From the sequence record NC_028881.1: 64,000 nt of DNA; one strand, 5' to 3'. A program made the position numbers and the translations under genes. Source of the stretch: Escherichia phage vb_EcoM-VR5. Position 1 is the stretch's first letter. Each line of letters starts with the position of its first letter. Below are positions 3,781 to 30,326 of this stretch, piece after piece. The notes beneath the pieces are model-generated. The model ran no database searches and was not told the DNA's origin. It saw only the letters and a list, made by a program, of their open reading frames with translations.

Positions 3781-4208
3781 TGTTCCTTATCCCTGATGAT
3801 TACGAATTAACTCTAGAAAGTGTAGAGGCCAAAATTCCAGAAGCACAGGGACGTTTTGCTGCTCTTTCTGAAGCCCTCGAGAAAAGCGATATAAATAATC
3901 TTGTAGAGAACATGATTGCTGATGGTGATATTGATACAGCTATTGCCATCGCCTCTTTGAATGAAAATATGGCTCTTAACGAATTTATCGTTAAGCACGT
4001 CTCCTCTAAAGGTGAGCTTACTCGTACTAAAGATATTAAAACCCGTCAACGCAACGCCTATCAAACGACTGGGTTATCTAAAGCAAAACGCCGTCAGATT
4101 GCTCGCAAAGCATCTAAAACCAAGCGTGCTAATCCATCTACTCAAGTACGTGCCGAACGTAAGCGTAAAAAAGCTCGTTCTAAACGTAAAGCCTTTGGAC
4201 TTAACTAA
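3780..4208 (+). CDS. 68: Prohead core protein gp68-like
   Basis: 142 aa with a basic C-terminus; position between gp67 and the prohead protease. Confidence 0.7.
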
Positions 4209-4843
4209 TGAAACCTGAATTGCTCATCGAACATTGGGGACAACCAGGTGAAATTATCGATGGGGTTCCTATGTTGGAATCTCATGATGGAAAAAATTCT
4301 GGACTTGCCCCAGGCCTTTATATAGAAGGCATATTCATGCAAGCCGAAGTAGTTAACCGTAATAAACGTCTTTATCCAAAACCTATTTTGGAAAAAGCGG
4401 TAGCCAACTATATGGCTGAACAGGTTGCTACTAAACAAGCTTTAGGAGAATTAAACCATCCGCCGCGTGCTAACGTTGACCCTATGCAAGCCGCTATTAT
4501 TATTGAAGATATGTGGTGGAAAGGTAATGACGTTTATGGACGTGCTCGTATTATTGAAGGCGACCATGGTCCTGGTGATAAACTAGCTGCTAATATTAGA
4601 GCCGGTTGGGTGCCTGGTGTTAGTTCTCGTGGTCTAGGTTCTTTAACCGAAACCAATAAAGGATATAAGCGTGTAAACGAAGGTTATAAATTAACCGTCG
4701 GTGTTGATGCAGTATGGGGCCCTTCTGCTCCGGATGCTTATGTAACGCCGAAACAAATTACAGAATCACAAACGGTAGAAACCGATACCAGTGCCGATGA
4801 CGCCTTTATGGCTCTCGCAGAGGCCATGAAAAAAGCGTTATAA
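4208..4843 (+). CDS. 21: Prohead core protease gp21
   Basis: 211 aa; position and size match T4 gp21. Confidence 0.85.
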   Translation: MKPELLIEHWGQPGEIIDGVPMLESHDGKNSGLAPGLYIEGIFMQAEVVNRNKRLYPKPILEKAVANYMAEQVATKQALGELNHPPRANVDPMQAAIIIEDMWWKGNDVYGRARIIEGDHGPGDKLAANIRAGWVPGVSSRGLGSLTETNKGYKRVNEGYKLTVGVDAVWGPSAPDAYVTPKQITESQTVETDTSADDAFMALAEAMKKAL

Positions 4844-4873: not shown

Positions 4874-5689
4874 ATGCTTAAAGAACAACTGATCGCCGAA
4901 GCACAGAATATTGATGCTTCCGTTGCTCTTGATAGTATTTTCGAATCAGTTAATATTTCTCCGGAAGCAAAAGAAACTTTCGGCACTGTATTCGAAGCTA
5001 CCGTCAAGCAACACGCCGTGAAACTGGCTGAATCTCACATCGCTAAAATCGCTGAGAAAGCGGAAGAAGAAGTTGAGAAAAATAAAGAAGAAGCTGAAGA
5101 TAAAGCTGATAAGAAAATCCAAGAAGCTGCTGGTCGTTTCCTTGACCACGTCGCTAAAGAATGGATGGCTGAAAACCAGCTGGCTGTTGATAAAGGTATT
5201 AAAGCCGAACTGTTCGAATCCATGTTGATGGGTATGAAAGAACTGTTTGTTGAACACAATGTGGTTGTTCCAGAAGAAGCAGTAGATGTTGTTGCTGAAA
5301 TGGAAGAAGAACTGGCTGAACAGAAAGCCGAAACCGCTAGTCTGTTCGAAGAAGTTTCTAAGCGTGATGCTTATATCAATTATGTCCAACGTGAAGTTGC
5401 GTTGACTGAAGCAACTAAAGACCTGACTGAATCCCAGAAAGAAAAAGTTGGTTCTCTGGTAGAAGGCATGGATTATTCCGATGCATTTGGTAAAAAAATT
5501 GGCGCTATCGTTGAAATGGTTAAGGGTCAGACCGACGTTGAAAAACCAATCACTGAAGCCGCTATAAATAAAACTGAAGACGATGCTGCAGCACTGAATT
5601 ATATTTCGGAAGCAGTTGAAGAAAAAGGCGCTAAGCCTACCCTGTCCTTCGCGGACCTGTCTGCAATCGCAGCATCTCGAATTTCTTAA
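4874..5689 (+). CDS. 22: Prohead core scaffold protein gp22
   Basis: 271 aa, acidic, E/K/A-rich coiled-coil-like composition; TATAAATA at 4839-4846; immediately upstream of the major capsid gene. Confidence 0.85.
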   Translation: MLKEQLIAEAQNIDASVALDSIFESVNISPEAKETFGTVFEATVKQHAVKLAESHIAKIAEKAEEEVEKNKEEAEDKADKKIQEAAGRFLDHVAKEWMAENQLAVDKGIKAELFESMLMGMKELFVEHNVVVPEEAVDVVAEMEEELAEQKAETASLFEEVSKRDAYINYVQREVALTEATKDLTESQKEKVGSLVEGMDYSDAFGKKIGAIVEMVKGQTDVEKPITEAAINKTEDDAAALNYISEAVEEKGAKPTLSFADLSAIAASRIS

Positions 5690-5710: not shown

Positions 5711-7270
5711 ATGAAAAAGAATGCATTAGTACAAAAATGGTCCGCTCTGCTGGAAAACGAAGCTCTTCCTGAAATCGTTGGTGCTTCTAAACAAGCTATC
5801 ATCGCTAAAATCTTTGAAAACCAGGAACAAGATATTCTGACCGCTCCTGAATATCGTGACGAAAAAATCTCCGAAGCATTTGGTTCTTTCCTGACTGAAG
5901 CTGAAATCGGTGGTGACCACGGTTATGATGCTACCAATATCGCAGCTGGCCAGACCTCTGGTGCAGTAACTCAGATTGGGCCGGCAGTTATGGGTATGGT
6001 TCGTCGTGCTATTCCTCATCTGATTGCTTTTGATATTTGTGGTGTCCAGCCTCTGAATAACCCTACCGGCCAGGTATTTGCCCTGCGTGCAGTTTACGGT
6101 AAAGACCCTGTAGCTGCTGGTGCTAAAGAAGCTTTCCACCCGATGTATGCTCCGAACGCTATGTTCTCTGGTCAGGGCGCTGCTGAAGCTTTCGAAGCTC
6201 TGGCTGCAAGCAAAGTTCTTACCGTTGGTAAAATTTATTCTCACTTCTTCGAAGCAACCGGTTCTGCACACTTCCAGGCTGTTGAAGCTGTAACCGTTGA
6301 TGCCGCCGCTACTGATGCCGCTAAACTTGACGCTGAAGTTACCAAACTGCTCGAAGCTGGTAAGCTGGCAGAAATCGCTGAAGGTATGGCTACTTCTATC
6401 GCCGAACTTCAGGAAGGCTTTAACGGTTCCCAGGATAACCCGTGGAACGAAATGGGCTTCCGCATCGATAAACAAGTTATCGAAGCTAAATCCCGTCAGC
6501 TGAAAGCAAGCTACTCCATCGAACTGGCACAGGACCTTCGTGCAGTACACGGTATGGATGCAGATGCTGAACTGAGTGGTATTCTTGCTACTGAAATTAT
6601 GTTGGAAATCAACCGTGAAGTTATCGATTGGATTAACTATTCTGCACAGGTTGGTAAATCTGGTATGACCAACACCGTTGGCGCTAAAGCTGGTGTGTTT
6701 GACTTCCAGGACCCGATTGATATCCGTGGTGCTCGTTGGGCCGGTGAAAGCTTTAAAGCTCTCCTGTTCCAGATTGATAAAGAAGCCGCCGAAATCGCTC
6801 GTCAGACCGGTCGTGGTGCTGGTAACTTCATCATCGCTTCCCGTAACGTAGTTAACGTACTGGCTGCAGTTGATACTTCTGTAAGTTATGCCGCTCAGGG
6901 TCTTGGTCAAGGTTTCAACGTTGACACCACTAAAGCAGTATTTGCCGGTGTTCTTGGTGGTAAATATCGCGTTTACATCGACCAGTATGCTCGTGCTGAT
7001 TACTTCACCATCGGTTATAAAGGTTCTAACGAAATGGACGCAGGTATCTACTATGCTCCTTACGTTGCACTGACCCCACTGCGTGGTTCCGATCCGAAGA
7101 ACTTCCAGCCGGTAATGGGCTTCAAAACTCGTTACGGTATCGGTATTAACCCGTTCGCTGACCCAGCTGCTCAGGCACCTACCAAACGTATTCAGAATGG
7201 TATGCCGGACATCGTTAACAGCCTCGGTCTGAATGGTTACTTCCGTCGTGTTTACGTTAAAGGTATCTAA
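5711..7270 (+). CDS. 23: Major capsid protein gp23
   Basis: 519 aa; matches T4 gp23 in size, position and sequence character; followed by a strong hairpin. Confidence 0.95.
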   Translation: MKKNALVQKWSALLENEALPEIVGASKQAIIAKIFENQEQDILTAPEYRDEKISEAFGSFLTEAEIGGDHGYDATNIAAGQTSGAVTQIGPAVMGMVRRAIPHLIAFDICGVQPLNNPTGQVFALRAVYGKDPVAAGAKEAFHPMYAPNAMFSGQGAAEAFEALAASKVLTVGKIYSHFFEATGSAHFQAVEAVTVDAAATDAAKLDAEVTKLLEAGKLAEIAEGMATSIAELQEGFNGSQDNPWNEMGFRIDKQVIEAKSRQLKASYSIELAQDLRAVHGMDADAELSGILATEIMLEINREVIDWINYSAQVGKSGMTNTVGAKAGVFDFQDPIDIRGARWAGESFKALLFQIDKEAAEIARQTGRGAGNFIIASRNVVNVLAAVDTSVSYAAQGLGQGFNVDTTKAVFAGVLGGKYRVYIDQYARADYFTIGYKGSNEMDAGIYYAPYVALTPLRGSDPKNFQPVMGFKTRYGIGINPFADPAAQAPTKRIQNGMPDIVNSLGLNGYFRRVYVKGI

Positions 7271-7286
7271 GACATAACCTTATTAT

Positions 7287-7315
7287 GGGAGACTTCGGTC
7301 TCCCATTCTTGTTTC
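7287..7315. terminator. Hairpin GGGAGAC-TTCG-GTCTCCC after gene 23
   Basis: 7-bp GC stem with UUCG loop followed by a T-rich run; sits between convergent gp23 and the antisense gene. Confidence 0.6.
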
Positions 7316-7319
7316 TGTA

Positions 7320-7586
7320 CTATACAATCTTGACTCGACGGTTGATAATATCGCGGAAGTCAATACGATTTTCTTGGATTTTCAACCAGTTACCAGATTT
7401 GTCTTTGGTGTGGGTAGAATATTCACCATTCCACCAGAAGTCAGTAGCATAAGTCATGGTTTCGTATTTCTTAACTAACGCATTAACTGCATTACCGTTA
7501 GGATTGCGGCCAAATTTTTCTACCAAGGCTTTGATGTCTTTATCAAGAGCTGAAAGTGTAGTACGAATAAAGTTTAACTTGTTCAT
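7320..7586 (-). CDS. Hypothetical small protein, antisense to the late capsid cluster
   Basis: About 88 aa taken from the internal ATG at 7584-7586; preceded on the minus strand by GAGGAG and an early-type promoter (GTTTAC/TACTAT). Confidence 0.5.
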   Translation of the reverse strand: MNKLNFIRTTLSALDKDIKALVEKFGRNPNGNAVNALVKKYETMTYATDFWWNGEYSTHTKDKSGNWLKIQENRIDFRDIINRRVKIV

Positions 7587-7615
7587 TTTTAATCTCCTCA
7601 TGTTTTGATAGGTTT

Positions 7616-7645
7616 ATAGTAACACGTGAGAACCTTGCTGTAAAC
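7616..7645 (-). promoter_or_regulatory. Early sigma70-like promoter for the antisense gene 7320..7586
   Basis: Minus strand GTTTAC, 18 nt, TACTAT, then leader with GAGGAG and ATG. Confidence 0.5.
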
Positions 7646-7651
7646 AACTTT

Positions 7652-7659
7652 TATAAATA
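7652..7659 (+). promoter_or_regulatory. T4-type late promoter (TATAAATA) for gene 24
   Basis: Exact TATAAATA about 29 nt upstream of the gp24 ATG. Confidence 0.6.
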
Positions 7660-7687
7660 AACATATACCCTCAATAAGGAAAGCGCA

Positions 7688-8968
7688 ATGGCAAAGATTA
7701 ACGAATTACTGCGCGAGTCAACAACTACTACCAGCAACTCATTGGGTCGCCCTAATCTTGTTGCTTTGACCCGTGCTACCACTAAACTAATTTATCGCGA
7801 TATCATCGCTGAACAGCGTACAAACCAGCCTATCGCTGCGTTATACGGTGTCAAATACCTTACCCCTGATAATGAATTTAGCTTCCAGACCGGTGCTACT
7901 TACGGTGGTGAAGTTGGTTCTAAAGACCGTGAAACTATCCCAGAATTAACAGATAAGTCCCAGGCTATTGCCAAGGGTGGCTACTTTAAGTATCAGAATG
8001 TGGTTTATAAGGCTTTGGTTGCAAGCCCACTCGCATCTACTAGCGCCATAGATTTGTCTGATGCTCTCCAAGAAGGTTTGGTGTCATTAACTTGCCGTCT
8101 TGTCCCTGATGCAGCTCATACCGAGAAATTCGAAGCTGGAGATGTTGAAATTAGTAATGCCGTGTTCCAGGTCAATAAATGGAACGCACCAGTTAAATCT
8201 CGTAAGCTGAAAACGGCTTTGACTGTAGAACTAGCCCAGGATATGGAATCTAATGGCTTTGATGCTCCAGCATTCCTTGAAGACCTCCTGGCTACAGTAA
8301 TGGCCGATGAAATTAACAAAGATGTTCTGCAGTCATTGATTACCGTATCTAAACGTTATAAAGTTACTGGTGTTTCTGATAACGGTATTATCGACCTTTC
8401 TTATGACTCTGCACCAGAATCTGCTCGTAAGCTGTACGAAATGGTTTGTGAAATGAATTCCGAAATCCAGAAAACAACTTCTTATTCCGCTACATTTGTT
8501 GTAGCTTCTTCACGTGTTGCTGCTATGCTTGCTGGTTCAGGTTGGTTAAAACACAAGCCGGAAGATGAGGCTTGGCTCCCGGAAACCGCGTATGGTTATT
8601 TGATTAATGGCTTACCTGTGTTCTGTGATGTGAATAGTCCATTGGATTATGTTACCGTAGGCGTTAAAGAAAACTATGGTGGTAATGAAGTTGTTGGTTC
8701 TATTTTCTATGCGCCGTATACTGAAGGCCTAGATTTAGATGATGAAGAACACGTCGGTGCTTATAAGGTAATTGTCGACCCAGACAGTTTACAACCTTCT
8801 ATTTCTCTGATGGTTCGTTATGCGTTGTCTGCCAACCCTTATACCGTAGCCAAAGATGATAAAGAAGCCCGTGTTATCGATGCAACTAATATGGACTTGA
8901 TGGCGGGCCAGAGCAATATGTCTTATCTGCTTGGTGTTAAATTGCCTAAAATAATTTATGAGGCGTAA
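7688..8968 (+). CDS. 24: Capsid vertex protein gp24 (T4-orthologous copy)
   Basis: 426 aa; N-terminus MAKINELLRESTTT...GRPNLVALTRATTKLIY matches T4 gp24 from memory; late promoter at 7652-7659. Confidence 0.9.
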   Translation: MAKINELLRESTTTTSNSLGRPNLVALTRATTKLIYRDIIAEQRTNQPIAALYGVKYLTPDNEFSFQTGATYGGEVGSKDRETIPELTDKSQAIAKGGYFKYQNVVYKALVASPLASTSAIDLSDALQEGLVSLTCRLVPDAAHTEKFEAGDVEISNAVFQVNKWNAPVKSRKLKTALTVELAQDMESNGFDAPAFLEDLLATVMADEINKDVLQSLITVSKRYKVTGVSDNGIIDLSYDSAPESARKLYEMVCEMNSEIQKTTSYSATFVVASSRVAAMLAGSGWLKHKPEDEAWLPETAYGYLINGLPVFCDVNSPLDYVTVGVKENYGGNEVVGSIFYAPYTEGLDLDDEEHVGAYKVIVDPDSLQPSISLMVRYALSANPYTVAKDDKEARVIDATNMDLMAGQSNMSYLLGVKLPKIIYEA

Positions 8969-10249
8969 ATGCAAAAGATTAACGCACTAATCCATGAATC
9001 AACTCTGACGGCGGCCAACTCGGTCGCTCGTCCTACTCTTCTCTCATATACTAAAGCTACTAACAAACGTATCTTTAAATCACTTGTAGCCGAACAAAAG
9101 ACACGCCAGCCTGTGGCGGCGCTTTATGGTATTCGTGTTCTGAACCCAGCAGATAAAATGACTTATCTTGGCGGCGCAACGTTTGCTGGTGAAATTGGTA
9201 TGTTTGAACGTTCTCAGATTCCAGAGGTAGTAGGTCCTAATGAAGCTTATGTCGTCGGTGATATGTTCCAATTTGAAAATGTTGTTTTCAAAGTACTAGA
9301 AGCATCTCCTTTCGCCGGTACAGCCGAAACTGAGATGGGTGAAGTTATTTCTGAAGCTATTGCTGCTGGTCATATTCGTATGGTTTCTGATGCGGCTCAG
9401 ACTTCTAAATTTGAAAAAGGTCATCCTGAGATTGCCGAAGCCGGATTCCGTATCGATAAATGGCAGACTGAAGTTAAATCTCGTAAGTTAAAAACTTCAT
9501 TAACTGTAGAACTAGCCCAAGACCTAGAATCCAATGGATTCAATGCCCCAGGATTTATCGAAGATATTCTTGGAATCCAGATGGCAGAGGAAATTAATAA
9601 GGACGTACTTCAGTCATTGATTACTGTAAGTTCCCGTTTTAAAGTCCAAGGTGTTTCTGAAAAAGGTGTTCTTAACCTTACAGACCCACAGTATGATAAT
9701 GCCCAAGACCGAGCTCGTACATTGTATTATTATATGTGTGAAATGAACTCAGCGGTCCAACGTAATACATCATTCGCTGGTACATATGCCGTAGCTAGTT
9801 CCCGTTGTGCCGCTATTCTTGCCGCGTCCGGCTGGGTCGAGAAAAAAGATGACCAAGACGAATTAGCTTATGGTGTTCTGAAGAACGGTCTACCACTTTA
9901 TGCTGATGTGAATAGTCCGTGTGATTATGTTATCGTCGGTGTGAATGCAGATATTGGTGAAGGACAGACGGTCGCATCTTTGTACTATGCGCCTTATGTG
10001 GAAGGCCTGGACAACGTAGATGATGAGGGTGATACTTCTGTAGGTGAATTCAAGGTTATCGTTGACCCTGAAAGCTTACAGCCTACCGTCGCCTTGTTGG
10101 CTCGATATGCACTGACAGCAAACCCGTATACCGTTGCCAAAGATGATAAAGAAGCTCGTATTATTGATGGGTCCGATATGGATAAGATGGCTAACCAAAG
10201 TCAATTGAGTTCTTATCTTGGTGTTAAACTTCCACCACTAGAAAAATAA
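8969..10249 (+). CDS. Capsid vertex protein gp24 paralog (second tandem copy)
   Basis: 426 aa, collinear with the preceding gp24 and sharing long identical motifs (KSRKLKT.LTVELAQD.ESNGF, EINKDVLQSLITVS, YALSANPYTVAKDDKEAR) but diverged elsewhere. Confidence 0.85.
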   Translation: MQKINALIHESTLTAANSVARPTLLSYTKATNKRIFKSLVAEQKTRQPVAALYGIRVLNPADKMTYLGGATFAGEIGMFERSQIPEVVGPNEAYVVGDMFQFENVVFKVLEASPFAGTAETEMGEVISEAIAAGHIRMVSDAAQTSKFEKGHPEIAEAGFRIDKWQTEVKSRKLKTSLTVELAQDLESNGFNAPGFIEDILGIQMAEEINKDVLQSLITVSSRFKVQGVSEKGVLNLTDPQYDNAQDRARTLYYYMCEMNSAVQRNTSFAGTYAVASSRCAAILAASGWVEKKDDQDELAYGVLKNGLPLYADVNSPCDYVIVGVNADIGEGQTVASLYYAPYVEGLDNVDDEGDTSVGEFKVIVDPESLQPTVALLARYALTANPYTVAKDDKEARIIDGSDMDKMANQSQLSSYLGVKLPPLEK

Positions 10250-10251
10250 AA

Positions 10252-10275
10252 GGGACCGTAAGGTCCCTTTATCGT
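10252..10275. terminator. Hairpin GGGACC-GTAA-GGTCCC between the gp24 paralog and rnlB
   Basis: Perfect 6-bp stem with tetraloop and flanking T-run, between convergent genes. Confidence 0.6.
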
Positions 10276-11283
10276 TTATTTGGATACTAATTCAATCCAC
10301 ACAGCTCGTAGCGTATCTTTAACACACTCAATGAGCTGCTTTTTAACTTCAACAGGATTTTCTGCATCGGTTAATTCTAATTCTTCACGGGACGCCTCTT
10401 CCAAAATATCTTGGACTGTTAGTCCCATTACCTTTCCGAAATCCTTAGGCGTTACTTCACCAATCTTACTGATAACATTGTTAATACGGTTAACAGTCAC
10501 ATAATCAGTGAATTGCCACATCAGGTCCATGTCATCTTGGGACAATACTACTACAGCCTTGATAGGCTTATCGGATTTTTTCTTCTCGCTGAATTTAGAG
10601 TTCTTACATTTAATCGCTACTCGATTTCCATTTGGAAGCCAGGTAGGAACATCAGGTTTCAGTACAAAGCCTTCAGCCGTAAATACTTTGCCTTCAACCT
10701 TTGGAATAAAATCAGTCGAGTTTGCGATAGTCAGGCCTGCATTATCCACCGCAAAATTGTAATCAGGAACCACAGAATCAAAATCATTAGGGAGCTTAAT
10801 AAGGTCTTCAAAGCTACCAGTAGCCAGACATGGAGCCACCTTAAACTTGTGGATAATACAGAAAGCTTCCATCAATGTATCAGTCAGAACAGATTCTGTG
10901 CCGTCGTCTTTAGTAACGCGGATATCGAACACATAAAAATCTTTATCACCATAATCCACATTCTTCTGAATACCTGAACCGGCGAACTCGCCATAAATCT
11001 GGTACGACTGATAATCAATCGATTCAATTAGATGCTGAACAGATTTAATAGAATCAGCATAATTCTTTAAAACAATTTCATAACCATAAAAGTCTTCAGC
11101 AGGAAGAATAGGGCCTGTGCGCTTAGCGCATGTGACTGCGTCACGTTCAATAATTAAACTAAAGTTCGTACCATGAATCTTCTCACGTGCTACCCACTCA
11201 CCATCGGTCATACCATGGGTACGGAGTTTTTCAATGAACTTATTGTTGTAGTGGTTTTCCAGACTGCTATATTTCTTGAACAT
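10276..11283 (-). CDS. rnlB: RNA ligase 2 (RnlB)
   Basis: 335 aa; N-terminus [19 protein letters not shown] matches T4 Rnl2 from memory; position after gene 24. Confidence 0.9.
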
Positions 11284-11760: not shown

Positions 11761-13062
<1,302 letters not shown>

Positions 13063-26219: not shown

Positions 26220-28268
26220 TTATCTGAATTTTTCCGGAAGGGCATTGATATCAGTCAATGCACACAGGATTTTATCAACTTCGTTATCTGAAGCTTCTTT
26301 AGATTCTGTAAGGAACCCAGAGAAAGATAATGTTTTGTTTACTGGTTCCAACTTACCGGATTCCAAGAACAAATCACCGTCGTAAACTACTTCGCTTTCG
26401 GCGACGATACGGTCCAGGTCCATTACTTCACACTCTAACAAGAAACGGTTAAAGGATTTAGACAGGCTAGCCGTAGTGGTCTTGTTAACTCGCAGTGTAG
26501 TACCACGTGGCAACAGAACTTCAGCCTCTTCAGGGTATTCAGACAAACTACCTGGCATAATAACCTTAATCTTCTCAATACCACGAATAACAAATGAGAT
26601 ATCAATCTTAGAATTACCTTCGGTTTTCAGTGCATTAGTTACTGTCTGGTTAGCATCTTGTGAACGCCAATCATCAGAGAATGCATGACCATCAGTATAA
26701 GTAGACGAGAAGTCATCTAATGTGATACCCATACCATTGCCGGACATTTGTCCAGGAACGTTACTAAAAATGTTAGGCTTCAACGAAGTAGAAACATAGT
26801 TACGGAAGTAGAATGTACGGCCTGTAATATTGCGACGAAGAGTATTAGAATCACCACCCTGACCACGATAAACCGTAGTACCCTTAGGCAAAGTTACACC
26901 TTTAGAGAACGCGCTATCAAGTTTCTCAATTTCACCTTCAACAAACTTAATGGAAGTATCCTCATCAGGAGTACCAAGCAAGAACGTGTTAATATCATAG
27001 AACGAGTTCATACAATATTCTGATACAGCCTGTTTTTCTTCCTTGGTAAGGTCTGCTTCTGGTTCAACGTTCTGGGCCACTTCATACGAATTGGTAAAAA
27101 CATCATCAATCATCTGAGTAATAATAGCCATAGGACGTTGAAGAGCCTGGGCCTTAACATCTACATCTACCGAAGAACCTGCAGTAATTTCACGAACAAT
27201 TCTTTGCATGATTTCGTACGAGTTTGTAGTATCAAGATTTTTAAATTCTTCAGCCATCAATCTAACGATGTCAGAAGGGTAATTTCTGGTACGTAGCTTA
27301 CCTTTAGCTTCGGATAATGCATCCATTAAAGAAGATACTTGAGGTGATAAACCGGAACTAGACGAAATATTAATATAAGCCAATTCAGATTGGGTTTTCT
27401 TAGCAAAGGTCTTCATAGAGGCTTCAAATGATTCGAATTCTTTAGATTTCTTACCATCTGATTTATATAAAGGAACTTCGTCATCATACTTAGCAAAGAT
27501 TTTAGCAGTCTCTGCATCGGCCTCAATATTTTCAGGAGTAACTGCGTATTGAGCCGCAATAGTAGCACGAACGTTTAATTTAGTACGAGAGATAACAGCC
27601 TTATCGGTACGCTTTTCTTCAACCTGCGCTACAGAAGCTACAACGGCTTCAACCTTACTTACGGCTTGGCCAGTTTTCTTGGAAACATAAACTTCGCCAA
27701 CTTTAGAATCAACTTTAGTATAAAGGTCAGCATCAATTTCCGGCATGCCTTTGATGTCTTCGATATTCGCACCACGACGTACTAAAAGAACGTAAGTATG
27801 TTTACCGCTGAACTGGAACATATCATTAACAACTTTAAACTTACCACCTGTACGAGCCATGGCCAAACGAGCCAATACACGTTGTACAGTAGGACCCTTA
27901 CCTTTCATTTTCTTAGTAGGGAAACGGAACAGAACTGCATCCATTTTAAGTTTATTTACTTGTTCATATACCGTATCGAAAATAGTATTCAATGCACCAA
28001 GTGGGTCAGAACCAAGTCCACCTTTGAGTTCAGCCGGGGCACCTTTGCTTGACAAACTCATTAGAATAACATGAACATATTTGTCACCTGGCTTAACCAT
28101 TTTAACTGCGTCTCCTTGAGACGCATAAGATACCATACGAGCCACAAGGTTATCATTACCTGGTGCTTGGATAGAGAAAATCTGTGGGATACCGGAACCT
28201 GGTTTAAGATTTGTTACTGGATAGTTTTTAGCTGAATCACTATCAAAAACTTCGTTTAAATTTTCCAT
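26220..28268 (-). CDS. alt: Alt-like ADP-ribosyltransferase, copy A
   Basis: 682 aa, the T4 Alt size; C-terminal region carries an Arg (YRGQ), an STS (YVSTSL) and an E-x-E (EAEVLLP) motif. Confidence 0.85.
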   Translation of the reverse strand: MENLNEVFDSDSAKNYPVTNLKPGSGIPQIFSIQAPGNDNLVARMVSYASQGDAVKMVKPGDKYVHVILMSLSSKGAPAELKGGLGSDPLGALNTIFDTVYEQVNKLKMDAVLFRFPTKKMKGKGPTVQRVLARLAMARTGGKFKVVNDMFQFSGKHTYVLLVRRGANIEDIKGMPEIDADLYTKVDSKVGEVYVSKKTGQAVSKVEAVVASVAQVEEKRTDKAVISRTKLNVRATIAAQYAVTPENIEADAETAKIFAKYDDEVPLYKSDGKKSKEFESFEASMKTFAKKTQSELAYINISSSSGLSPQVSSLMDALSEAKGKLRTRNYPSDIVRLMAEEFKNLDTTNSYEIMQRIVREITAGSSVDVDVKAQALQRPMAIITQMIDDVFTNSYEVAQNVEPEADLTKEEKQAVSEYCMNSFYDINTFLLGTPDEDTSIKFVEGEIEKLDSAFSKGVTLPKGTTVYRGQGGDSNTLRRNITGRTFYFRNYVSTSLKPNIFSNVPGQMSGNGMGITLDDFSSTYTDGHAFSDDWRSQDANQTVTNALKTEGNSKIDISFVIRGIEKIKVIMPGSLSEYPEEAEVLLPRGTTLRVNKTTTASLSKSFNRFLLECEVMDLDRIVAESEVVYDGDLFLESGKLEPVNKTLSFSGFLTESKEASDNEVDKILCALTDINALPEKFR

Positions 28269-28271
28269 TAT

Positions 28272-30326
28272 TTACCCTTGGATGAATTTTTCTGGCATAT
28301 CATTAAGATTCATACATGATGCTAAAAGAGGTAGTACATCAAACTTAGTTGATTTTACAAATGAGTCAAAAGATACAGGGTTTTCGGTAGTATCGAAATC
28401 ATCTTGATACACAACCAATTCACCGGTTTCCATTAACATGTTTCCATCATATACTACTGACTCTTGAAGCTCATCTGATGTCATAACTTCGGCTTGAACT
28501 AATTTATTATTAGTTTTAGAAGTACCGTCGTTATAAGAAGCATCTGTTATTTTATTAATTTTGAGCATTAACCCACGTGGAAGAATAATTTCCATTTCGT
28601 TAGAAGGAGCAAGACCTGCACCAGGGAACACCACGTTTATTTTGTGAGCACCTGAAATAGCCCAACCGATACCAACTTGGTCGTCATTAGACTTAACAAG
28701 TCCTTCATCCGATTTGTCTATGGAAACATCTAAACGGACTTCATCAGGCAGAGTACCTACTGAAGCATCTGTCATCCAAGTACCAAAAATATTAGGATAT
28801 AAAGATGTAGATACAAAGTTTCTGAAATAGAATACCTTGTTTTTAACCATTGCTTCGTAAATAGGTGGAATCATTTTCTGGGAACGATACAGTGTAATTC
28901 CTTCTGGTAATCTATCACCATTTTTAAAAGCATCATCTAAGTTATCAATAGCTTTTTCGATTTCCGGGCCAGTCAAAATACTAGAACGAACTTCTGGATT
29001 GTATATACCTAAAAGTGCATTGTTCATATCTTCATAACCGGAACCAACATACTCACGGATACCACGTTTTTGTGCTGGAGTATACTGGGTTTCATCTCGG
29101 TTATCAACAATAGAGAACATTGTCCAACCGGCAGCCAATGCAAATCCACGAATTTCTTTTTTAATGACCTTAGTCTTAGCGACGTTCCAAGAGCTTTCAG
29201 ACAATTCCATGGCTACAGTATAATCTAAATTAGAATGTTTAGCAAAGAATTTTCCTAACCAGGCACCTTTATATTCTTCAAGAACTTCGTTTAGTACTGA
29301 AGCAAAACTGCTTAATGCATCCATAGACGTTATAGGCTTACCGTGGATTTTTTGGAATGCACGAACTTTAACATCATGGTCGACTTCTTTTATTTTGCTT
29401 TTAGTTACTATTCCGCTATCGGCAAAGGCATCACCAACACCATTTATATTTGTAACTGTATTAAGAACACTTTCTAAAGAAAACGATGCGGTAGAAATAG
29501 TAGATAATTCGTTAGATTGTGGAATAAGTGGCGCGGTAGCAGGTTTACTTAATTCGGATGCAGAAGCTTCAAATTTGGTAAACATAGGTGTTTCAAAACG
29601 CGCTGATTCTAAGGATTGCGACATAGCAATAGCACGTCGTGAAATCTTGGTCTTAGTAATAACGGTTTTATCTGTACGGCGTTCTTCAACCTTAGCAATA
29701 CTACCTGCAATAGCGGTTTCTTTAGTAACCTGTACACCTTCTTTTTTGCTTACATAAACATCACCAACATCAGAATCAACTTTAGTATAAAGTTCAGCAT
29801 TAATTTCTGGAATACCTTTGATGTCTTCAATATTAGCTTGTTTACGGACAACTAAAATATAAGTATGCTTGCCAGTGAATTCATACATGGCAGGAACTAC
29901 TTTAAAACGGCCACCAGTTTTCTGTGCAACTAAACGTTGAATAAGGCGCTGTACGATAGGACCTTGTCCTTTCATTTTCTTAGTAGGAAAACGGAACATA
30001 ACCGCGTCCATACGAAGTTTTTTAACTTGCTCGTATACTACATCAAAAATGGTATTAATAGCATCAATAGGAGTTGCTCCTAAGCCACCTTTTAATTCGG
30101 CAGGGGCGCCTTTGGCTGACAGACTCATTAAAATAACGTGAGCATATTTGTCGCCTAATTTAACTTGTTTGATAGCATCACCTTCAGATGAATATGACAC
30201 CATACGTGCTACCAATTGAGACTCAACGCCGCCAATCTTCCAAATCTGTGGTACTTTAAGTTTCGGGTTCAAGTTTACAGTAGGTAATGTACCTTCAGAC
30301 TCGAACACTTCATTTAATTGGGTCAT
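28272..30326 (-). CDS. Alt-like ADP-ribosyltransferase, copy B (tandem paralog)
   Basis: 684 aa; N-terminal half near-identical in pattern to copy A; C-terminus has LYRSQ, FVSTSL and EMEIILP motifs. Confidence 0.85.
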   Translation of the reverse strand: MTQLNEVFESEGTLPTVNLNPKLKVPQIWKIGGVESQLVARMVSYSSEGDAIKQVKLGDKYAHVILMSLSAKGAPAELKGGLGATPIDAINTIFDVVYEQVKKLRMDAVMFRFPTKKMKGQGPIVQRLIQRLVAQKTGGRFKVVPAMYEFTGKHTYILVVRKQANIEDIKGIPEINAELYTKVDSDVGDVYVSKKEGVQVTKETAIAGSIAKVEERRTDKTVITKTKISRRAIAMSQSLESARFETPMFTKFEASASELSKPATAPLIPQSNELSTISTASFSLESVLNTVTNINGVGDAFADSGIVTKSKIKEVDHDVKVRAFQKIHGKPITSMDALSSFASVLNEVLEEYKGAWLGKFFAKHSNLDYTVAMELSESSWNVAKTKVIKKEIRGFALAAGWTMFSIVDNRDETQYTPAQKRGIREYVGSGYEDMNNALLGIYNPEVRSSILTGPEIEKAIDNLDDAFKNGDRLPEGITLYRSQKMIPPIYEAMVKNKVFYFRNFVSTSLYPNIFGTWMTDASVGTLPDEVRLDVSIDKSDEGLVKSNDDQVGIGWAISGAHKINVVFPGAGLAPSNEMEIILPRGLMLKINKITDASYNDGTSKTNNKLVQAEVMTSDELQESVVYDGNMLMETGELVVYQDDFDTTENPVSFDSFVKSTKFDVLPLLASCMNLNDMPEKFIQG

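Follow-up and report, generated by a model that had tools for sequence, protein, structure and literature searches.

Why do some T4-type phages keep two genes for the capsid vertex protein gp24, when T4 itself has one? This question is raised by a 64,000-nucleotide stretch of the Escherichia phage vb_EcoM-VR5 (NC_028881.1, hereafter called the window), in which one gp24 gene (24a) is immediately followed by a second one (24b). The original prediction, which was made from the letters of this stretch alone, read the two genes as a tandem duplication within the phage lineage, with a second copy that had strongly diverged. Our computational analysis confirmed two full-length genes but placed 24b in an old lineage of its own, which accompanies 24a in phages of at least six genera, and it suggested that both products are probably processed vertex subunits with separate roles.

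Two gp24 paralogues and the age of their split

The list of open reading frames (ORFs) agreed with the prediction of two collinear 426-amino-acid (aa) ORFs at 7688-8968 and 8969-10249, and BLASTP aligned their products over the full length at 54% identity (E 5e-173), while each was only about 29% identical to the gp23 of the window, over about 250-280 aa only. In a Pfam search, PF07068 covered both proteins at profile positions 3-376 of 376, with 325.9 bits (E 6e-97) for 24a and 330.3 bits (E 3e-98) for 24b at a gathering cut-off of 24.4 bits. The chain of the T4 gp24 crystal structure (1yue_A) matched both end to end (24a, residues 1-424, E 4e-200; 24b, residues 1-423, E 2e-149), and gp23 structure chains gave weak scores only (about 1e-11). 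The first copy had been described as close to T4 gp24, which in numbers meant 71-72% aa identity for 24a and 56-57% for 24b. Among the related pairs, 24a was 96% identical to the 24a of phages JS98 and ESCO10, and 24b was 90-91% identical to the 24b of JS98, VR26, and ESCO10; the closest relative of 24b was a metagenomic protein (P0001, 96% identity) on a 173-kb ENA contig. These matches identify 24a and 24b as true gp24 paralogues, both of full length. The AlphaFold2 model of 24b, made with an alignment of 34 sequences, reached a mean predicted local distance difference test score of 45.6 and a predicted template modelling score of 0.30, which was too low for use; from its 57% identity to the solved T4 structure, 24b would have the HK97 fold with an insertion domain (I-domain).

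If 24b were a young copy of 24a, the two should be each other's closest relatives. This was not what the trees showed. Neighbour joining of 27 gp24 proteins (300 bootstraps) placed every 24b protein in one clade (100%), and all 24a proteins grouped together with the gp24 of T4, Mosigvirus, Karamvirus, and Edwardsiella phage PEi20 (95%), with 24b outside. In agreement with this, 24a was nearer to the gp24 of T4, Mosigvirus, Karamvirus, and PEi20 (69-71% identity) than to 24b (54-55%). A larger tree of 89 sequences recovered the 24b clade with 29 members and 100% support, and it left 24b, the gp24 of Acinetobacter phages, and the remaining Tevenvirinae gp24 as a three-way split without resolution. 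Single sites pointed in the same direction. At 42 sites that split 24b from the group of 24a and T4, the outgroup residue was the 24b state 33 times, and I39, D208, F271, and I423 were common only to the 24a and T4 group; these derived residues were found neither in 24b nor in Jiaodavirus, Tegunavirus, or the outgroups. A search of 5.8 billion proteins returned the 24b clade as 21 clusters with 68-96% identity to the 24b of the window, below which there was a gap and then Jiaodavirus at 62%.

Tajima relative-rate tests with Krischvirus and Slopekvirus-like outgroups counted 50 versus 44 and 39 versus 46 unique changes for 24a versus 24b, neither of them a significant difference, and with phage KARL-1 as the outgroup 24b had more unique changes (67 versus 41). 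The dN/dS ratio was calculated by the Nei-Gojobori method at unsaturated distances, and it was 0.039-0.047 for 24a, 0.052-0.070 for 24b (0.022 for the pair JS98-VR26), 0.031-0.047 for the single-copy T4-type gp24, and 0.017-0.080 for gp23. Both 24a and 24b are thus under strong purifying selection, and neither is relaxed. In deep comparisons 24b was at least as conserved as 24a, with 81% against 73% identity between the window and phage P545 and 69% against 65% between the window and phage Cronus. A pseudogene or decaying second copy was ruled out as well, as every inspected copy was intact with a dN/dS of 0.02-0.07. The rate asymmetry or relaxed selection expected of a derived copy was therefore not borne out by the Tajima counts or by the 24b dN/dS of 0.05-0.07. 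Because the relative rates were equal and the dN/dS ratios were similar, the divergence between 24a and 24b reflects age and not relaxed or accelerated evolution; and because of the outgroup-state sites, the equal rates, and the discrete 24b clade, the deep placement of 24b is not a long-branch artefact. The tree and the derived sites indicate that 24a is the orthologue of T4 gp24 and that 24b is an old lineage, which split off before the radiation of the enterobacterial Tevenvirinae (T4, Mosigvirus, Karamvirus, and Dhakavirus).

Two origins of such an old lineage have to be weighed. 24b may have been imported by recombination from a deep unsampled T4-like lineage and then spread as a cassette among enterobacterial Tevenvirinae, which we regard as a tentative possibility. 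The unsettled branching order of 24b, Acinetobacter-phage gp24, and Tevenvirinae gp24 would fit this origin, and the excess of unique 24b changes with the KARL-1 outgroup is expected of an earlier branching. The head module is also mosaic, as the gp23 of phage SEA1 goes with Karamvirus and its 24a and 24b with those of Dhakavirus and Kanagawavirus, and the two genes of the window hold a divergent patch of their own (see below). Identities within the 24b clade (74-93% outside Roskildevirus) are furthermore higher than among its 24a partners (66-77%), but a slower evolution of 24b would explain this too. Against import, a possible donor with a 24b-type gene as its sole gp24 was not found, and the 24a and 24b topologies were largely congruent in eight GenBank carriers, as vertical co-inheritance predicts. 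The alternative is a duplication of gp24 in place that was followed by many losses, including one in the T4 lineage, and we are undecided between the two; in a gp23 species tree, which could decide between loss and gain of 24b, the deep nodes had less than 50% bootstrap support and the module was mosaic. The recent duplication of the original prediction, followed by fast divergence of a relaxed or neofunctionalising copy, is by far the weakest account, since the adjacent, collinear genes of equal length and the lower likeness of 24b to T4 gp24 are outweighed by the separate 24b clade drawn from six genera, the closeness of 24a to T4 gp24 (71%), the outgroup states that 24b keeps and the 24a and T4 group has lost, the equal rates, and the low dN/dS, which together refute it.

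A standard pair and its dependence on 24a

The tandem 24a/24b pair is no new duplication; it is already known as a standard arrangement in Dhakavirus and its relatives. In GenBank, genes 24a and 24b are named in the records of JS98, JS10, and IME08 (Dhakavirus), and the record of VR26 (Gaprivervirus) calls the products "capsid vertex protein I" and "II". The pairs of these four phages are the same as that of the window in genes, order, abutting junction, and flanks, and the flanks common to the window and the JS98-type loci are gene 23, a small minus-strand ORF, and rnlB. Over the region, the nearest isolates were ESCO10 with 88% nucleotide identity and JS98, JS10, IME08, and Bp7 with about 84-85%; between the window and JS98 the identity was 96% for 24a and 90% for 24b. 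The same tandem pair was present in Salmonella phage SEA1 (Gelderlandvirus), Klebsiella phage P545 (Marfavirus), Erwinia phage Cronus (Roskildevirus), and Enterobacter phage Q7622 (Kanagawavirus). The arrangement is therefore standard and annotated in at least six genera, though a functional characterisation of it was not found. The refuting condition set with the original prediction, an arrangement both standard and characterised in the genus, thus holds in its first half. A gene 24 duplication in JS98 was reportedly noted in a 2004 J. Bacteriol. paper on that phage by Chibani-Chennoufi et al.

At the DNA level, 115 records of the phage collection covered at least 80% of 24b, which agreed with the 117 extra gp24 places found among 1,376 gp24-holding records, so pair carriers made up about 8% of the sequenced gp24-bearing phage records. 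Genomes with only a T4-type gp24 were the majority. A single gp24 was found in T4, T6, Mosigvirus AV110, Jiaodavirus JD18, Karamvirus CkP1 and EnC15, Tegunavirus TG1, Acinetobacter phage KARL-1, Krischvirus MIZ3, and a Slopekvirus-like Klebsiella phage. Winklervirus CHI14 was suspected of carrying the pair but was ruled out, as it has one gp24 only. PEi20 belongs to Kanagawavirus, the genus of Q7622, and has a single gp24 as well; only 34 nucleotides (nt) lie between this gene and rnlB, which means that 24b is cleanly absent. In the Q7622 record, a 487-aa gene at the hoc position (locus L014, 6782-8245, minus strand) is labelled "capsid vertex protein" and the 24a is labelled "major capsid protein", which are probably annotation slips.

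The copies in the window differ from the pair of the JS98/ESCO10 type in being a divergent allele, whose 24b is closest to the metagenomic P0001. Between 8100 and 9900, a patch that takes in the last two-thirds of 24a and most of 24b, the nucleotide identity to ESCO10 was 76-89%, compared with 96-100% in the flanks (gp21 to gp23, and rnlB), and the synonymous divergence from ESCO10 was 0.045 for gp23, 0.60 for 24a, and 0.91 for 24b. In the tree of 27 proteins, the 24a of the window grouped with the 24a of JS98 and ESCO10 (93%), and its 24b fell inside the 24b clade of Dhakavirus and Gaprivervirus (100%) but outside the group of VR26, JS98, and ESCO10 (99%). Because of the drop in identity, the synonymous divergence, and the position of 24b outside this group while 24a stays inside Dhakavirus, the pattern indicates that the vertex genes were replaced by recombination with an allele from outside the isolate collection.

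The loci that carry 24b were then compared for the presence of its partner. We inspected 8 GenBank loci, 16 IMG/VR loci (several of which are the same isolates), and 8 metagenome contig loci, the last being picked partly for the most divergent 24b proteins. In every one of them a gp24 gene lay directly upstream of 24b in the same order, and a gene of the 24b clade as the sole gp24 was not seen among these 24b-bearing loci. Only 24b thus appears to be dispensable over evolutionary time, and it appears never to serve as the sole vertex gene. The identity of the 24a partner was less constant. Related 24b proteins (79-93% identical) were paired with 24a partners from different gp24 clades. For example, on two Logan metagenome contigs (L049 and L050) the 24b proteins were about 79% identical to each other, and of their 24a partners P0033 was 76% identical to the gp24 of T4 and CC31 and P0089 was 77% identical to the gp24 of PEi20 and PM2. 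This suggests that one gene of the pair can be exchanged without the other.

From one operon to two vertex proteins

A single copy of the T4-type late-promoter motif TATAAATA was found within 7000-10600, and it lies upstream of 24a (Table 1). In all eight carrier phages compared, TATAAATA was located 34-38 nt upstream of 24a, and in none of the eight was it found inside 24a, where it could act as a separate late promoter of 24b. Matches to sigma-70-like promoters for 24b were not above the shuffled expectation, so an own promoter for 24b was dropped. The TAA stop codon of 24a (8966-8968) directly abuts the ATG of 24b (8969), which forms a TAAATG junction common to the Dhakavirus pair, and across the eight carriers the stop and start codons abutted, overlapped, or were no more than 2 nt apart without exception. 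The predicted pairing energies of the two Shine-Dalgarno sequences were alike in six carriers; in the other two, P545 and Cronus, 24b had the weaker pairing. With one promoter, abutting codons, and flanking terminators, all read at the level of motifs, as were the ribosome-binding sites, the pair looks like one late bicistronic operon with coupled translation. The two copies had been said to follow gene 23. They do lie downstream of it, but not directly, as a terminator hairpin and a 93-aa minus-strand ORF intervene.

Table 1 Positions of the features at the 24a/24b locus of the window
Feature	Position	Strand	Basis and remarks
Gene 23, major capsid protein, 519 aa	5711..7270	+	ORF list; hexamer protein
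Terminator-like hairpin 3' of gene 23	7285..7306	+	Nine-pair stem (5 G-C pairs), then T-rich tail
93-aa ORF between gene 23 and 24a	7320..7601	-	ORF list
T4-type late-promoter motif TATAAATA	7652..7659	+	37 nt upstream of 24a start codon
24a Shine-Dalgarno sequence AAGGA	7676..7680	+	Duplex with 16S rRNA 3' end, -6.2 kcal/mol
Gene 24a, T4 gp24 orthologue (capsid vertex protein), 426 aa, ATG start	7688..8968	+	ORF list, BLASTP, Pfam, tree
24a predicted propeptide, residues 1-10, end LLRE/S	7688-7717	+	Motif (slash, cleavage site)
24b Shine-Dalgarno sequence GAGG, inside last 24a codons	8960..8963	+	Duplex -5.6 kcal/mol
Gene 24b, ancient gp24 paralogue, 426 aa, ATG start	8969..10249	+	ORF list, BLASTP, Pfam, tree
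24b predicted propeptide, residues 1-10, end LIHE/S	8969-8998	+	Motif (slash, cleavage site)
Bidirectional terminator-like hairpin between 24b and rnlB	10249..10270	.	Hairpin search
rnlB	10276..11283	-	Neighbour gene, convergent with 24b

The differences between the two proteins were located with the domain limits given for T4 in the paper on its head structure (T4 numbering; PMC9546572). The identity between 24a and 24b was 34% in the I-domain (residues 82-142), 36% in I-domain linker 1, and 47% in the N-arm (residues 11-29), compared with 53-66% in the long segments elsewhere, so the predicted divergence of the second copy in the N-terminal third and the insertion region was confirmed. Within each clade, too, the I-domain varies more than any other region, and for this reason only the difference in the N-arm is paralogue-specific. 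This arm was 89% identical between 24a and T4. In 24b, residues 21-48 were largely invariant from Cronus to the window; L27Y, L34R, and Y57V distinguished 24b from every other gp24, and at L25, S26, N32, and F36 it kept states that occur in outgroups too. The acidic loop 348-359 is three residues longer in 24b. In T4, gp24 residues 11-20 extend onto the gp23 hexamer next to it, and within the pentamer residues 26-29 form a beta pairing with the I-domain linker of the next gp24 subunit (PMC9546572). Because this T4 segment contacts both the gp23 hexamer and the neighbouring gp24, the N-arm segment of 24b is a plausible specificity determinant.

Other features of T4 gp24 are kept in both proteins. 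In T4, the gp21 protease removes residues 1-10 of gp24 by a cut after Glu10 at LLRE/S (the slash marks the cut; PMC9546572), and the prohead-protease site L-[LI]-x-E/S with a ten-residue propeptide was kept in all eight 24b proteins compared. Both proteins of the window thus resemble T4 gp24 (PDB 1YUE, 5VF3, 7VRT, 7VS5, and 8GMO) in aligning with it end to end, in the LxE/S propeptide site, in the place downstream of gene 23, and in the late promoter. They differ from it in that T4 has one gene and the window has two, which are 71% (24a) and 57% (24b) identical to the T4 protein, and in the clade-specific N-arm changes and the longer loop of 24b described above.

We propose the following role for the pair. 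24a and 24b would be transcribed late from one promoter as a bicistronic message, with the translation of 24b coupled to that of 24a, and both proteins would be made in comparable amounts. Because the gp21 site is kept in both, both precursors would enter the prohead shell and be trimmed there by the gp21 prohead protease. The shell that both gp24 paralogues must fit against is that of the gp23 hexamers. Because both genes are as constrained as a single-copy gp24 and only 24b is ever lost, their roles would be non-redundant: 24a could build all vertices alone, as in T4, and 24b would need its 24a partner. Most simply, two kinds of homopentamer would share the 11 non-portal vertices. This is the reading we favour and consider moderately probable. 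The paralogy and age of the pair, the selection on it, its operon signals, its conserved motifs, and its distribution are results of the analysis, whereas the presence of 24b in the virion, its cleavage, the homopentamers, and the division of vertices are all inferred here from sequence.

Several points weigh against this proposal. That 24b never stands alone is a statement about approximately 25-30 distinct loci plus record counts, which is no exhaustive census. The pairing of closely related 24b proteins with 24a partners of different clades means that tight co-adaptation of the two is not needed. The 55 gp24 subunits of T4 resemble one another in structure whatever the environment of their vertex (PMC9546572), so the geometry does not obviously call for two proteins. 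Full-text literature searches found no phage with both genes that had been studied by proteomics, genetics, or cryo-EM, and for gp24 the PDB holds that of T4 only. The literature matches for "24b" were to "delta-24byp24" mutants of T4 and not to gene 24b, the Morganella phage MP1 and Klebsiella phage proteomes are from single-copy phages, and a transposon-mutagenesis preprint includes no T4-like phage.

A sharper form of the favoured reading is that each paralogue forms homopentamers at one class of vertex, the classes being the apical vertex, the distal ring of five, and the portal-proximal ring of five. The coupled operon with similar ribosome-binding strengths would give comparable amounts of the two proteins, which fits a 5:6 or 5:5:1 split, and the N-arm of 24b is conserved yet distinct in the very segment that touches neighbours and hexamers in T4 (PMC9546572). 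The loss of only 24b would also leave 24a as the generalist. But T4 fills all three vertex classes with one protein, in 55 copies that are alike (PMC9546572), and the sequence gives no hint as to which vertex each paralogue would occupy, and we regard such fixed positions as rather unlikely. One paralogue might then fill, for example, the cap-body shoulder rings of the prolate head, and the other the apical vertex or the portal-proximal ring. If this were true, the vertices of a T4-type head would differ chemically among themselves, and T4 would have been simplified by the loss of its second penton.

Mixed pentamers, in which 24a and 24b enter the same vertex capsomer at random or in a fixed ratio, are less likely again. 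They would be favoured by co-translation from one mRNA, and the axial and peripheral core regions are 53-66% identical with many invariant positions in common. However, a five-membered ring cannot alternate two types of subunit, and 24b is most specifically different in the N-arm segment that acts within the pentamer. The related 24b proteins with 24a partners that are only about 66-77% identical also argue against a tightly co-evolved interface between the two.

Slightly lower still we place a conditional or back-up vertex protein, which would serve in an acid or protease-rich gut, at certain temperatures, or against host defences that sense the vertex. Without gp24, T4 loses much of its stability at pH 3 and is more easily attacked by digestive proteases (PMC10580926), the T6 gp24 mutation A380V escapes type IV Thoeris (PMC13243611), and the vertex genes are a recombination hot spot, as the synonymous divergences from ESCO10 of 0.60 and 0.91 against 0.045 for gp23 indicated. 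But the shared promoter always yields 24a along with 24b, so that a defence sensing 24a would be set off all the same, and A380 is kept in both paralogues except in the 24b of Cronus. Redundancy moreover predicts the loss of either copy, and only genomes without 24b were seen; purifying selection on both is as strong as on a single-copy gp24. A link to Thoeris escape was also considered as a general pattern and rejected, as position 380 is Ala in both paralogues with the same exception. In Cronus, 24b (locus L004, 4768-6051) has Val at T4 position 380, and all other 24a, 24b, and T4-type proteins have Ala.

Neighbouring features and significance

The window has a head-gene cluster of the T4 type, with gp21 at 4208-4843 and gp22 at 4874-5689 followed by gp23 at 5711-7270, the last being 99.8% identical to ESCO10 gp23 and 84% identical to T6 gp23. 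The 93-aa minus-strand ORF (7320..7601) had no Pfam match, and its position is that of the segD homing endonuclease in T4 and T6. An ORF of similar size is annotated in the same place in JS98, ESCO10, VR26, and Mosigvirus AV110. Farther downstream, a 433-aa protein (11761-13062, plus strand) consists mostly of collagen-like G-X-Y repeats (PF01391, E 4e-36), and its gene sits between a 24.3-like gene and the hoc/inh region. The gene in this place is annotated as "collagen triple helix repeat" in VR26 and as "host specificity protein" in ESCO10, and JS98 has no such gene there.

The pair has two parallels. gp24 itself is thought to derive from gp23 by duplication (PMC10580926), and this older event resembles the present one in that a paralogue of the capsid shell was kept beside its parent gene in the late head-gene cluster. 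The two cases differ in degree, as gp23 and gp24 have clearly separate roles (hexamers and pentamers) and are about 21-29% identical, whereas 24a and 24b are 54% identical and their separate roles are putative. The second parallel is a tandem pair of Alt-like ADP-ribosyltransferases on the minus strand of the window (26220..28268, 682 aa; 28272..30326, 684 aa), which are 38% identical, both match PF03496, and are annotated as alta and altb in the related phages JS10 and IME08. These are also conserved tandem paralogues, but the proteins, which are head-packaged ADP-ribosyltransferases, are unrelated to gp24. Since this pair is kept too, retained tandem paralogues seem usual in this type of genome.

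The arrangement itself is thus ordinary, as the pair has been annotated for about two decades. Its interest lies in the contrast with the T4 capsid, which has one vertex protein, while at least six genera include phages in which strong selection preserves two. The reason for the second protein could be found with existing isolates such as JS98, ESCO10, VR26, and S16-like Salmonella phages, and it has a bearing on the specification of pentons in prolate capsids. The answer is also relevant to the engineering of T4-type heads, because the vertices affect acid and protease stability and are sensed by at least one bacterial defence system.

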